From Escherichia coli (GTDB taxonomy: Bacteria > Pseudomonadota > Gammaproteobacteria > Enterobacterales > Enterobacteriaceae), in assembly GCF_002854065.1 (NCBI RefSeq), contig NZ_CP024147.1: a stretch of DNA of 64,000 nt; one strand, 5' to 3'. Each line of letters begins with the position of its first letter. Position 1 is the stretch's first letter. Positions 6,750-15,700 of the stretch are shown here, piece after piece. Position numbers: made by a program.

Positions 6750-9700
6750 TAAATCAGTCGCGTACTTTGTCCGCTTTCTCCCGGGCTTCCCGCTCGAGAG
6801 AGAAAATAATCCGCTGTAATTGCCGCTCCACCGTCGGGCTGACGTTAAGAAAACGGAAGCTCAGACGGGGAGTGGTGATGGTTTCATTCTTGCCATCAAT
6901 CACTTTGCGCTCGCTGATGGAGATTAACTGGGCGTCAAAGTGAAAAACACCCCATTGCCCCATGTTGACTTCAATCTGAGCGAAGCGCATACCTTCGTGC
7001 AACCCGGCAGGCTTTGCTGTTTCCAGTAATGCGCCCATGCCGCCTAACGACAAATCATACAGGCGGAAACGTAACGTACTGTTATACGCCAGTTTGGTCT
7101 GGCAAAAATAAGGCGGATGGAGTGGGGCGGAGATGCGGAAATATCGGCGTCGTTGTACAAACCATAAGGTGGGAGGCGGTACGGTAATAAATGCCGGAAG
7201 CTGCAAGTATTCACTCTGTTGTAGTTGTTCAACAGTAAACTCGACTTTCGCACCCTGAGTTTCGGCGGTAATGGTAATGTGCTGTGCCTTTAGCACGGCG
7301 ATGTTGTCTTCGGCTTGACTGCCGAAATCCAGCACCAGTTCATCTGGGGTTATTACCAGTATTTTGCTGATCAGCTGCCCGCCATTCCAGCTGATACGCA
7401 AAGGAATTGCGGCTTTGTGCAAATCGCGTAACACGCCCAGGACGGCTAACGGATTTTGTTTCAGGAACTGCTCATGGTAATGACTCACGCGGAAAAACTC
7501 CTGACTGACAAACTGTCTATGGTTTATCGGTCATAGTTAACAAAACTTAATACAAATGCGTGAATATTTTTTACAAGTTGTTCTTAAATCAGCCGACAAA
7601 CGCCCAGCATCGATCCCGCCCTTGCCTATACTTAGAGCGTTGACGTAAGCATTTCTTGCGTCCGATTCATCGAAACGAGGGCCTGAACATGGGAATTATT
7701 GCCTGGATTATTTTTGGCCTGATAGCCGGCATTATCGCCAAGCTAATCATGCCGGGGCGTGATGGTGGTGGATTTTTCCTGACCTGTATTCTCGGGATAG
7801 TCGGTGCGGTGGTCGGCGGCTGGCTGGCGACCATGTTTGGCATTGGCGGCTCCATCAGCGGTTTTAATTTGCACAGCTTCCTGGTGGCGGTGGTGGGAGC
7901 TATTCTCGTTCTGGGCGTATTCCGCCTCCTGCGAAGAGAATAAGATTTTCATAAGGCGGATAGCGATACAGATGCCGCTATCCGCTTTCACATCAGAACG
8001 TATACTCGACACCTGCCCAGAAATTGCGGCCTTCTTCAATAAACCCTTCACTGTAGGCATATTGGGTATCAAACAGGTTATTGACCGACGCATTGACGCT
8101 GAAGCCATGACCTAAGGTGTAATCGGCTCGAATGTGGGTCACCGCAAAACCGGCGGCTTTTTGTGAACCGTCACTGTTGCTGTAGCTGGAGGAACGCGCC
8201 TCTTCCGACAGCGTTACGCTTAACGGCTCCCACGGTTTGAGAGTCATCCATGCGGTCATTGTCTGCGTTGGCAGATCGGTTATCTTGCCGATGTCTTTGC
8301 GTTTGGCGTCAGCGTGGATCAGGGCGTAGCTCAATCCTACATCCAGTATATTGCTGATTTTCCCCTTAATACCGGCATCCAGACCGCTGTAATCCACCGT
8401 GCCGCTGTTCTGATTTTGAATGGTATCGGCATCGATATTGTGCGAGAGGATGGCATCACTCACCCGGTTATAGTAAACGCTGACCTCAAATCCCCAGTCG
8501 CGCGTGAAGGCACCATTCCAGGTTAAATCCACCCCGCGAGCGCGTTCCGGCTTGAGCTGCGGGTTAACAATCGCTATCTGGTTATACGCAGGTTTGGACG
8601 TGGTATAGCGTTCTTTCAGCGTCGGAAAGCGTGTGCGGTCATAGTACGAAAGCGCCAGCGTGTCTTCATTGACAAAGTGGTATTTCCCCATCACCTGCCA
8701 GTTAAAAGCTGACTGATTGTTGTCGTCATAATGGGTGATGCTGCCATCTTTCTCGTGTTTTTTCGCTTCTACGCTATCGCGCCAGTCATAGCTGATTCCA
8801 GCCACAACATCGACATTATCGGCAGCAGCCCATTGATATTCACTGGCGAGCGACCAGGTACGATCTTCATAGCGATCGTAAGCGGCGTGCGGCGCACCTT
8901 TTTCCCGGTGTACGTCATCTTTCCAGTTAACGGCAAACGACAGCAGATCGTTTTCACGCACATCGGCTGCCAGTTGTAATCCGGCACCGTCGCTGTAATC
9001 GGAATAATGGCTGTAGCTGCCTTTTTTATTTTTCAAATCAGCCTGCGAGTTGTACATCATCAGCGTATTTTCAAAGGTGTCGCGATACAGCCGACTTTTC
9101 AGGGTAAAACGATCGTTTAGTTGGGTCGTTCCCTGATAATAAAAACTTTCTTTGTCATACTCTGGCCACTGCCAGTAGCGTGATTTTTGACCACTATTTC
9201 CGCTGTATGGCGGGTTATCTTTTTCACCATCCTGCTTAATGTAAGTCAGTGTGTATTCATCGTTTTCACGTGGTGTAAATCCGAGCTTCACAATGCCGCG
9301 TTTATCATCAGCCGATGAATTAATCATCTTGCCGTGTTTGCCTGCAATATCATTATTTACACCATGCGGCAGGCCGAGAAAATCCTGCTTTAGCTGACTA
9401 CCGCTGACTTGCAAATACCCCAGTTCGCTGCTGGCGGCAAATGAAGCATGCATATCGTAGGCATTGTCCTGGCTACGGCTCCATCCCTGGCGATATCCCA
9501 GACTTGCTTCCAGAGGTTTTGTTGGCTTCTGGGTGGTGATATTAATGGCTCCGCCCATCTGATTAGGCCCCTGAAGCAGCGACGAATACCCTTTGGAAAC
9601 TTCGACTGCCCCCAGATTGTTGGTCAGAATCCGCGCCAGATCGAGGTTGCCGTCATAGGGAACATAAATGGGCACACCGTCGAAATAGACCGGCACCTGC

Positions 9701-12700: not shown

Positions 12701-15700
12701 AGCGCAGACGCGTCACGTTCAGTCCCAGCGAACGGGCTTCGTCGTCGGAAAGCGTGAGTAAATTCATGCGCCAGCGGAGAAAAAACAGGGGCAAGGAGCC
12801 TATGAGAATGATCGGTGCAGCATAGCAGAGATCGCGTAAGGTCACGGTGGACAGTCCCCCCAGCAACCAGAAGGTAATTGACGGTAACTGGGTGTAAGGA
12901 TCGGCCAGCGTTTTAATTAGTGATATCCCCGCTCCGCACAACGTTCCTAACGCAATGCCTACCAGCACCAGGATTAAGATCGGATCGTGGCGGGTCACCC
13001 GACGCGTAATCAACCAGACGCCCGCGACCACCATCAGCCCGCCGCAAAATGCGTACAGCTGGATGTAAACAATGGATAATCCCCACAGAATTGCCGTGCA
13101 GGCACCAAGTCCGGCACCAGCGGAGACGCCTAAAATATCCGGTGAAACTAAGGGATTACGCAACATTCCCTGATAGGTGGTTCCGGCTCCTGCCAGCGCC
13201 GCGCCCAGTAACAGCGCAGCAAGAATACGCGGCACGCGGATTTGCCAGAAGACAATTTGTTCCTGCACAGGAACATTTTCTTGACGAAGAATTAGCGCCA
13301 GCAGTTGCTGCATATCGAGATTATAAGCCCCACTTACGGCGGCAAAAGTGATACTGATAGCTGCCAGCAGCAAAATACATCCGTTTACGATTCTCATTAG
13401 CTCGCCACCAATTTTTGATAGTCGGCGTCACTGAGTGAACAATGCCAGAACAGTTGGGCGTAATGCTGCATGTCACTTTTAAACTGGCGATTGATGGCGG
13501 GATCCAGCCAGGCGTGAAGTCTGCGTAATCCCAGAAGACGGTTGATTCCCGGTGGGGCATCCAGCCAGCCAAAGGGCAAGCCACTTAAAAATAAGATGCG
13601 TTGTTCCGCAACGGCTTTCACGCCATGCCAGAGAGGATCACGACGAATAAAATCTGCAGTAACGGCCTCCTGAACCAGAATAATATCCGGCTGCCAGCGC
13701 AGGAGATTTTCCATGGAAACCTGTGTCAGGCCGTGGCGATCGGCTATTTGCGCGACGTTGTGCAAACCTAATAATTCCGCCGCCTCGGTATGCAACGAAC
13801 CCTTTAAGCCCGTTTCCAGCCCTCGAGGACCGCGCGCAGCATAAAAGCGGAGGTTAGCGGCGGGTGAGGCGGCGAATGCCTGAGCTTCACCAACGAAGCG
13901 GCTGGCGAGATTGGCTTGTTCTGCGGCGCGATGCTCTTCGCCTAACGTTTTGCCAAGCGTTGTTAACTGTTCTGCTGATTGCGCCAGTTTCCCGTTAAGC
14001 AATAACCAGGGTATTTGTGTCTGTTCGCTAACCTGCCGTGCCTGGGAGATCCAGGTTTCATCCGTATTGCCGCAATCAACGACCAAATCGGGATGTAACG
14101 CCATAAGCCCTTCCAGCGAGAGTGTGCTGGCGCGCCCGGCGAGTCGTCCCAGCCTGGGTAACTGGCGAATGTGCTCTGGCAATGGAATTAATGCCTGACG
14201 GGCAAAATCAAAAGAGGAAAAACCGACCATTTTTTCTGGCGCGACAGCCAGCAATAGCAAATCGGCGGGCGCACCTGCGCTGACGATGCGTGTAATGTTT
14301 TGGGCTTCGGGAAGCGTCAGTGAGGCCCAGAATTTGACTGATTGTGCAAAAGAAGGCAGATGATGCAGGAACAACGTCGACGCAAGAATCTGTGTAAACC
14401 TCCGTCTGGTTAGTGACATAAGTTATATCCTGATAATTAAAACCGCTATATATTTACATATATATCGAAAAAAATCATGTTTGATGTCAAAATTTGTCTA
14501 AAGAGACAGAATGATTTGCTTGTTGCTTAAATAACACTTTGTTCCACAAGAAAATTGTCAGGGAGAATGGCGGAGTGGCGAAAAATATAAATAGAGGTGT
14601 AATGATTAACAAATTGATAAAATAAAATTAAAATCTTCTCTGATAAAAGAAAATAAAGGCATAGACCGTAGAATGGGGGGCATTTCGTGGCGAAAAAAGA
14701 GCAATGCCAATTTTATGCACATAATGGCATTGCTCGATATACAGCCTCGATATACAGCAAAGTTAAGGCGTAGGTTCCGCCTCTTTTTGTTTTACCGGCT
14801 GTGTTGTTGATTCACTGAGTGGACGCGTCGCCGGAACATTGTCACACGGTTGCTCTTTCGGGCAGATCAAATCCAGCATTTTCAGCGTCACGCCGTTGGT
14901 CCAGCCAAAGCCATCCTGTAATGGATATTCGCCACCGCCGCCCCCCGTTCCGGTGGTGCTGACATCATATTTTTCCACCAGCTTTTTCTCCCGGTCATAG
15001 GTGTGCTGAACATTGGTCAGGAATTGCCAGCTAATGTCCATCGCCACCTCTTTTTGCCCGTAGTTTTGTAATCCTTCTGTCGCGACCCACTGCAACGGTG
15101 CCCAGCCATTTGGCGCATCCCATTGTTGCCCACTTTTCACCGACGTGGTGTTCAGGCCGCCTGGTTGCAGCAGATGAGTTTTCGTCGCCGTCGCCATTTT
15201 GTTGGCGCGATCTTTCGCTGCCGCATTGACGTATAGCGGGAACAGGGCGGCAGCGGTTAACTGATTGCGCACTTTATGACTTTTCAGGTCGTAATCGGCA
15301 TACCAGCCTTGTTGATCGTTCCACAGGTATTTTTCGATCCCTTTTTGACGGGCATTTGCCAGCGTTTCGTACTGGTTTGCCATCGCGTTATCTCCGGCAG
15401 CCTTGCTGGCGCGGGCGAGGATTTTTTCCATTTTAAACATCAGGCTGTTCAGATCGACCGGTACGATGCTGGTGGTGCGTATGGTATTTAACTGCTGCGG
15501 ATTGTCCATCCAGCGCGAGCTGAAATCCCAGCCAGACGCAGCGGCAGAGCGCAGGTCGCGGTAAATTTCAGTGGCAGGTCGATTCGGATTGCTTTTGGCG
15601 GTGGCAATATCTTCCACCCATGACTCTGGTCGTGGCGTATCACGATCGTCCCAGTAGCGGTTGAGAAGGGTACCATCCTGAAGTTTTACAACGCGTTTTT

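Follow-up and report, generated by a model that had tools for sequence, protein, structure and literature searches.

In Escherichia coli, ModABC is a type I ATP-binding cassette (ABC) importer that uses a ModA-class binding protein and comprises neither an outer-membrane component nor enzymes. In Haemophilus influenzae, MolBC-A (HI1470/HI1471/HI1472) behaves as a low-affinity molybdate importer and transcription of molB is repressed by molybdate (PMC4031551), while molABC adjoins modD (HI1473) within HI1469-HI1475. ModD is also encoded in modABCD of Rhodobacter capsulatus, and it has the fold of NadC, the quinolinate phosphoribosyltransferase (QAPRTase). BtuB-BtuFCD, FhuA-FhuDBC, FecA-FecBCDE and Yersinia YiuABC-YiuR each consist of a TonB-dependent receptor, a Peripla_BP_2 substrate-binding protein (SBP), a FecCD permease and an ATPase. 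Here we analysed a six-gene operon located between ymgE and treA in a 64,000-nucleotide window (the whole stretch of E. coli DNA under study, from contig NZ_CP024147.1 of assembly GCF_002854065.1). From its sequence, this operon resembles a TonB-dependent type II uptake system in architecture and modABC in its predicted regulation, and it encodes a ModD and a methyltransferase within the same transcription unit.

The most informative feature of the locus is a ModE operator, which is absent from a preliminary description of the same DNA. From this operator and from its relatives, the operon is predicted to be induced by molybdenum (Mo) shortage and most likely scavenges Mo rather than iron. Limitation for Mo or tungsten was among the checks listed in the preliminary description, and that choice was apt. 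The palindrome (Table 1), situated in the 343-nt region upstream of the SBP gene, matches CGNTATATA-N6-TATATANCG with 0 mismatches and is the sole match at up to 2 mismatches in the 64 kb, where 0.01 is expected; its fit to the core of ATCGNTATATA-N6-TATATANCGAT, the ModE consensus quoted for E. coli in PMC545781, is likewise perfect. As a control, the same pattern recovers the validated K-12 modA operator CGTTATATTGTCGCCTACATAACG, which has 2 mismatches and whose end is 19 nt from the modA ATG. The operon and the E. coli ModABC/ModE regulon are alike in the type of operator and in its placement with respect to the first start codon, and they would share repression by ModE-molybdate and expression at Mo limitation; in contrast, homology between the operon and ModABC is limited to the ABC ATPase fold. 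The operator of the uropathogenic E. coli (UPEC) strain CFT073 is identical. With a consensus -35 hexamer placed 17 nt upstream of it, the ModE box would cover the -10/start region, where ModE is predicted to bind and to repress the operon. The spacing from TTGACA yields just 3-4 matches out of 6 to a -10 element, and no exact -10 was fixed, while a generic promoter scan favours a weaker promoter approximately 165 nt upstream.

Conservation of the operator was assessed in 80 ModD loci, collected from one genome per species with a 12-sequence ModD alignment, by searching for boxes with up to 3 mismatches over 1.48 Mb. The cluster promoter windows (35.9 kb) hold 86 ModE boxes, compared to 17 in the 1.45 Mb elsewhere, an approximately 200-fold enrichment; several of these 17 sit upstream of modA-type or anf-linked genes. 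A box is found ahead of the SBP gene in 47 of the 48 six-gene loci with upstream sequence, representing 16 genera. When the gap between ModD and the receptor gene is at least 108 nt, a second box always precedes the receptor, except in one degraded copy. Partial clusters have a box as well. Intestinirhabdus has the methyltransferase, ModD and receptor genes only, with a perfect box and no dedicated ABC importer. Edwardsiella carries the parts of the operon as separate pieces, each with its own ModE box: a transporter-less methyltransferase-ModD pair with TTGACG 17 nt upstream of the box (locus L004, 8189-9849) and, in E. tarda CP184643.1, a ModD-less SBP-permease-ATPase-methyltransferase-receptor cluster with a perfect box 33 nt upstream (locus L088, 3338-8968).

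We looked for signals of another type of control. No Fur box was detected at up to 3 mismatches in the whole 64-kb window, and the best Fur-like match upstream of the operon is 13/19, a level attained by 22% of shuffles; no riboswitch, including the cobalamin riboswitch, was matched in Rfam at E-values up to 1 within 7400-15200. Fur and iron were rejected as the main control on account of the absent Fur box. This bears on the label that the locus carries in the literature. In a passage of PMC1890555, after Guyer et al. 1998, the cluster of UPEC CFT073 is named prrA-modD-yc73-fepC and proposed to act in iron uptake; it corresponds to S-loop#83/OI#55 of O157 (ECs1693-1699), with the wording proposed or possibly iron uptake (PMC1890555, PMC12928451). 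The operon would then serve pathogenic E. coli in taking up iron as a siderophore or other chelate, with derepression through Fur at iron starvation. This agrees with the RefSeq names "iron ABC transporter" and "TonB-dependent siderophore receptor", with a sub-threshold likeness to the receptor and importer models for siderophores and heme, and with YiuA-type iron binders among the fold neighbours of the SBP. However, a conserved ModE operator holds the promoter instead of a Fur box, the siderophore, heme and citrate family models all miss their cut-offs, as do FecC/D, FhuB and Fep, and the linked ModD family appears tied to Mo wherever examined; we therefore consider iron uptake very improbable.

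The operon consists of six intact, tightly packed open reading frames (ORFs) on the minus strand, spanning the ymgE-treA interval at 7993-14419 (Table 1), and each of the six products is as long as its CFT073 RefSeq counterpart and 97-99% identical to it. The six-gene content, the operon structure and the location given in the preliminary description are therefore sound, as is its statement that the K-12 interval holds only ycgY, which is the case in K-12-type genomes. The junctions, which we read directly from the sequence, agree with those listed previously for three pairs of genes: the permease and ATPase genes overlap by GTGA (12417-12420), the ATPase stop TAA (11662) sits within the ribosome-binding site AAGGA, 9 nt ahead of the methyltransferase ATG, and the methyltransferase and ModD genes overlap by ATGA (10840-10843). 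The SBP/permease junction at 13397, in contrast, had been given as ATGA but is TAATG, with a 1-nt overlap. A 25-nt gap separates the ModD stop from the receptor ATG; for the receptor gene, an alternative in-frame upstream TTG at 9984, present in the ORF list, was judged less likely than the RefSeq ATG.

Table 1. Positions of the genes and signals of the ymgE-treA interval in the 64,000-nucleotide window.
Feature	Position	Strand	Description
Periplasmic SBP (Peripla_BP_2 class)	13397-14419	-	340 aa; first gene of the operon
FecCD-family permease (type II ABC importer)	12417-13397	-	326 aa
ABC transporter ATP-binding protein	11662-12420	-	252 aa; GTG start, same as RefSeq
Class I S-adenosylmethionine (SAM)-dependent small-molecule methyltransferase	10840-11652	-	270 aa
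ModD (NadC/QAPRTase fold, TIGR01334)	9989-10843	-	284 aa
TonB-dependent outer-membrane receptor "PrrA"	7993-9963	-	656 aa, RefSeq ATG
ModE operator (predicted)	14444-14467		Palindrome CGATATATA-TGTAAA-TATATAGCG (minus-strand reading); ends 24 nt upstream of the SBP ATG
Consensus -35 hexamer TTGACA	14485-14490	-	17 nt upstream of the ModE box; putative promoter
Probable treA terminator	14693-14735	-	11-bp stem GAGCAATGCCA/TGGCATTGCTC, 15-nt loop, T6; within locus-specific DNA
Last 24 nt of the receptor gene	7993-8016	-	Kept in ycgY-type (K-12-like) genomes; left breakpoint of loss/replacement
10-bp GC-rich inverted repeat	7956-7985		GCGGATAGCG / CGCTATCCGC; separates the convergent ymgE and receptor stops; common to K-12-type genomes
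ymgE	7689-7943	+	Left flank
treA	14763-16463	-	Right flank

The treA terminator was read from the sequence, as the terminator scan skips loops longer than 8 nt and does not list it; it would probably shield the operon from treA read-through. Right after the treA stop, we observed two perfect tandem copies of a 13-nt unit (CTCGATATACAGC x2, 14733-14758); this duplication shares 3 nt with the first arm of this putative terminator.

ModD scores 504 bits against TIGR01334 (cut-off 178.85), a model of the type "hypoth_equivalog", and 134.9 bits against the nadC model TIGR00078, which is under the cut-off of 198.4; the assignment made in the preliminary description is thus supported. Like NadC, the protein carries the QRPTase_N/C domains. 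Across 45 diverse ModD sequences, R130, K131, H152, R153, F163 and E195 are invariant, and in the alignment to the Mycobacterium tuberculosis QAPRTase (1qpn) the equivalents of R139, K140, H161, R162, E201 and D222 are kept. These residues of QAPRTase bind the carboxylate and phosphoribosyl pyrophosphate (PRPP). In contrast, K172 is replaced by the invariant Phe163 and R105 by Lys94, so that the complete NadC catalytic set is not present, and the operon offers no context of NAD biosynthesis. The ModD of R. capsulatus modABCD is similar in its TIGR01334 membership and its Mo-transport neighbourhood, while the operon ModD differs in being paired with a methyltransferase, a MolBC-type importer and a TonB receptor rather than with ModABC. 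Elsewhere, ModD is encoded as modA-modB-modC-modD behind a perfect ModE box (Yersinia alsatica), or, in Acerihabitans and its relatives, between the Fe-only nitrogenase genes (anfHDGK) and a transporter of the WtpA/ModB type, where boxes are likewise present. Two fusion proteins, P0144 (524 aa) and P0148 (495 aa), join a ModC/WtpC-type ABC ATPase domain to ModD, which sits where such ATPases usually carry a molybdate-binding regulatory domain. In every context examined, the ModD family appears to be tied to Mo. We also noted a 395-aa protein, P0171, with tandem Mop domains and a truncated ModD, which could be an assembly or frameshift artefact.

The methyltransferase gave generic Pfam matches only (Methyltransf_31/25/12/11) and weak NCBIfam matches, for example CpaM at 44 bits versus a cut-off of 180. 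The AlphaFold2 (AF2) model (predicted local distance difference test score, pLDDT, 88.8) has natural-product and small-molecule methyltransferases as Foldseek neighbours, at a template modelling (TM) score of approximately 0.55, and this search returned no specific neighbour and no substrate clue. In Enterobacterales, the orthologue is always directly upstream of ModD. A methyltransferase::ModD fusion was considered as a functional clue and rejected, the long ModD proteins P0144 and P0148 being ATPase::ModD instead. Likewise rejected was a corrinoid link through CpaM, a corrinoid-protein methyltransferase, since that match covers the SAM-binding core only.

Among characterised importers, the permease and the ATPase appear closest in sequence to HI1471 and HI1470. 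The top PDB match of the permease is H. influenzae HI1471/MolB (2nq2_A, 9e-65, 222 bits), ahead of FhuB (170 bits), BhuU (167 bits), BtuC (140 bits) and HmuU, and the ATPase matches HI1470/MolC (2nq2_C) at 1e-35. The permease remains under the cut-offs of the BtuC, FecCD and FhuB equivalogs, with BtuC-model scores of 233 versus 461 and 193 versus 334. The likeness to MolBC-A thus comprises the permease, whose best solved relative is MolB, a related ATPase and a modD encoded alongside; on the other hand, a TonB receptor and a methyltransferase are not described for the H. influenzae cluster in the papers covered, and its binding protein is only distantly related to the operon SBP. Besides, MolBC-A is described as active at high molybdate, while a TonB-dependent, ModE-repressed operon is expected to be active at low molybdate.

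The SBP has a twin-arginine translocation (Tat)-like signal of the RRRF type (MSLTRRRFTQ...SFA/QS), and its AF2 model has a pLDDT of 86. Its nearest solved relative is 4pag, an uncharacterised Sulfurospirillum protein (E 9e-27, Foldseek TM 0.78-0.82), and its fold neighbours include YiuA, heme binders and BtuF; neither fold nor profile searches separate Mo binders from iron-chelate binders.

The receptor has a signal peptide, MRLKKRYLCTALSLAFTQQAVA, and a candidate TonB box, DTLTVWS, read from the translation. Its cluster representative (99% identical) and its orthologues have the Plug (PF07715) and TonB_dep_Rec_b-barrel (PF00593) domains, in agreement with the class of TonB-dependent transporters, and dependence on TonB is predicted. 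No NCBIfam model attains its cut-off with the receptor (siderophore 126/223.5, hemin 124/317, B12 79.6/599.7). Cobalamin or corrinoid uptake was rejected, as no riboswitch was found and the BtuB and BtuC scores are far under the cut-offs. The opinion of the preliminary description that this is neither a textbook siderophore nor a B12 locus therefore stands: there is no Fur box in the window, no cobalamin riboswitch in the region searched and no equivalog-level match to BtuB, BtuC or a siderophore receptor, and two cytoplasmic enzymes and a ModE operator further distinguish the operon from the BtuB, FhuA, FecA and Yiu systems, which it matches in receptor, SBP, permease and ATPase.

An orthologue of the receptor, with 45% identity, is core to Pseudomonas aeruginosa and has no dedicated ABC importer there. 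In P. aeruginosa CP114086.1 (locus L087, 8963-11525), the receptor gene overlaps the gene for a 182-aa protein with an Oxidored_molyb domain and no NCBIfam match, followed by moaA and narGHJI, and a ModE-like palindrome, CGTTATGTA-N6-TGCATAACG, lies 14 nt before the receptor ATG. This region looks like a possible Mo-uptake module, of which we know no earlier description. It weighs on the alternative that ModE controls the import of a non-Mo compound from which the cell profits under Mo scarcity, such as an organic cofactor or precursor or a substitute metal, with ModD and the methyltransferase as salvage enzymes. ModE regulons do contain non-transport genes, neither the SBP nor the receptor bears a diagnostic Mo signature, and the two enzymes suggest the metabolism of an organic molecule; but this P. 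aeruginosa receptor adjoins moaA and nar, the permease is nearest to MolB, and ModD is fused to ModC/WtpC ATPases and Mop domains, so that we hold the alternative to be improbable.

Taken together, we propose that the operon is a single ModE-repressed system which scavenges Mo, and possibly also tungsten (W), across both membranes, a reading to which we give about even chances. When cytoplasmic molybdate is plentiful, ModE-molybdate would occupy the promoter-overlapping operator and keep the operon off; at Mo shortage the six genes would be co-expressed. The TonB-dependent receptor would carry a Mo species through the outer membrane and the Tat-type SBP would pass it to the MolBC-like type II ABC importer, while the methyltransferase-ModD pair may act on the Mo species, or on a small-molecule partner, within the cytoplasm and probably close to the ATPase. 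Gene content, family assignments, the operator sequence with its conservation, synteny, gene associations and fusions are observed here, whereas ModE binding and repression, the identity of the cargo and any enzymatic role of the two enzymes are inferred. As to the cargo, we lean towards the oxyanion itself, or a complex releasing the oxyanion in the periplasm. Both the receptor and ModD are found with and without other inner-membrane routes; receptors without ABC genes, as in P. aeruginosa and Intestinirhabdus, fit a cargo that can be transferred to a general molybdate importer.

A different cargo, which gives the ligand-processing idea of the preliminary description a Mo form, would be a Mo chelate, i.e. 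a molybdophore, a catecholate-Mo or a quinoline- or pyridine-carboxylate-Mo complex, possibly derived from the host or from neighbours. It would be taken up like a siderophore, and ModD, as a PRPP-dependent transferase for an N-heteroaromatic carboxylate, would together with the methyltransferase destroy or modify the ligand and so free the metal. ModE control is equally compatible with such a cargo, and a TonB receptor with a type II importer is typical for bulky chelates; the QAPRTase residues are kept in ModD, where the invariant Phe in place of K172 could suit another aromatic acid, the methyltransferase resembles enzymes acting on natural-product small molecules, and the weak affinity of MolA for bare molybdate leaves space for another ligand. 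Several of the related loci speak against it, however: ModD is also encoded with oxyanion importers of the ModABC and WtpA types, and in fusions with the ATPases of these systems, where no chelate is involved; the Edwardsiella methyltransferase-ModD pair stands alone under its ModE box; one E. tarda genome has the cluster without ModD; and receptors occur without a dedicated ABC importer. Since, in addition, no gene for chelator biosynthesis or export is linked to the cluster, we regard the chelate as unlikely, although it deserves to be kept in mind.

A number of observations weigh against Mo scavenging as a whole. The SBP matches MolA/HI1472 in sequence at 5e-8 over 82 residues only, with 52 bits for the family profile, and although MolA (3psa) is the nearest characterised structure, it ranks fourth, at TM 0.67-0.70, barely ahead of YiuA-type iron-chelate binders. 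The best sub-threshold family matches of the receptor are siderophore and heme receptor models. Because ModE also governs genes other than those for Mo transporters, regulation by ModE leaves the cargo unproven. A 160-Da oxyanion normally passes porins, and we know of no TonB-dependent receptor for an oxyanion. Simple import of an oxyanion does not explain the two operon enzymes with their apparent catalytic residues. Finally, MolA binds molybdate weakly and MolBC-A is a low-affinity system in H. influenzae (PMC4031551), so that the true substrate of the MolBC-type family may differ from molybdate.

A more far-reaching version of Mo scavenging, which we put forward as a tentative possibility, is that the operon represents the first TonB-dependent Mo acquisition pathway in Enterobacterales, its receptor belonging to a family that Pseudomonas has as well. 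Such a pathway would capture Mo species, possibly Mo-organic ones, that are beyond the reach of porins and ModABC at host-limited concentrations, and ModD and the methyltransferase would perform a PRPP/SAM-dependent Mo-handling step not described so far.

The distribution of the locus was determined by megablast. Of 5426 complete E. coli genomes, 2139 (approximately 39%) carry the full locus, CFT073 included at 98% identity, while ycgY occupies the site in the remaining ones. The locus is not an unrecognised oddity, being widespread and named since 1998. In the searchable literature we found neither a functional study of prrA-modD-yc73-fepC nor a paper that ties the cluster to ModE or Mo, although the ModE site may have been predicted in silico before; within this literature, the ModE operator and the Mo reading of the known locus appear to be new.

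A gene-neighbourhood comparison, which the preliminary description had suggested as a check, showed that the order of the cluster is conserved across genera of Enterobacterales, including Citrobacter. By tblastn with the six proteins, the same six-gene order was found in Escherichia, Citrobacter, Raoultella, Enterobacter, Klebsiella indica, Yokenella, Serratia and Symbiopectobacterium, and also in Pantoea, Erwinia, Pectobacterium, Affinibrenneria, Proteus, Morganella and Providencia. Several species of Citrobacter, as well as E. albertii, have the arrangement treA-cluster-ymgE-ycgR; in Raoultella, Enterobacter and Intestinirhabdus the cluster adjoins treA. When the window was compared by blastn to the ycgY-type strain WAT, homology was restricted to 7005-8016 and 14762-16000, and the segment that varies between ycgY-type and operon-bearing genomes is 8017-14761. 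Because the GC content of the cluster (approximately 0.51-0.56) is similar to that of the flanks, synteny extends to E. albertii and Citrobacter and a 24-nt receptor remnant is kept in K-12-type genomes, we conclude from these genome comparisons that the locus is ancestral in E. coli and was lost from some lineages, rather than gained by pathogens. The same GC content, treA-cluster-ymgE-ycgR synteny and receptor scar led us to reject a horizontally acquired pathogenicity island. In the ycgY-type locus L002 the scar, beside the ymgE terminator, is found at 1894-1917.

Some of the loci collected call for caution. Affinibrenneria salicis NZ_VYKJ01000001.1 has two six-gene clusters on one scaffold (L045 and L046, 143401-164240 and 910889-931728), and the two copies share hit coordinates and identities, which indicates a recent duplication or an assembly artefact. 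Citrobacter koseri NCTC10786 (L016) gave fragmented tblastn matches over the cluster and treA/ymgE/ycgR, with the permease missing; this copy is either decaying or part of a frameshift-rich assembly. A 3.2-kb contig of a "Collinsella sp." metagenome-assembled genome (L005, JAIJJM010000374.1) encodes ATPase, methyltransferase and ModD proteins 97-98% identical to those of E. coli and is most likely mis-binned Escherichia DNA. Finally, the ModD locus of "Martelella alba" BGMRC 2031 (L076), an alphaproteobacterium by name, resembles those of relatives of Pectobacteriaceae/Sodalis (L079-L081), with which it shares ModE boxes approximately 6.7 kb upstream and 0.6 kb downstream of ModD; its taxonomic label may be wrong.

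Molybdoenzymes, i.e. the nitrate, dimethyl sulfoxide (DMSO) and trimethylamine N-oxide (TMAO) reductases and the formate dehydrogenases, power anaerobic respiration, which underlies the blooms of Enterobacteriaceae in the inflamed gut and their fitness in the urinary tract, and the Mo cofactor pathway is poisoned by tungstate treatment. The carriers of the operon comprise approximately two fifths of the complete E. coli genomes, with CFT073 and O157 among them, as well as Citrobacter, Proteus, Morganella, Providencia, Serratia and plant pathogens. If the operon does provide a second, TonB-energised route for Mo or W, ModABC and non-specific anion carriers would no longer be the sole routes, and differences between strains in tungstate sensitivity and Mo-limited growth would be explained. 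An "iron uptake" locus associated with virulence in UPEC, O157 and Proteus would have to be re-labelled as one of Mo nutrition, and, in the more far-reaching version, ModD would finally gain a function. The operon is also a tractable entry point, through E. coli genetics, to ModD and to the real cargo of the MolBC-type importers.

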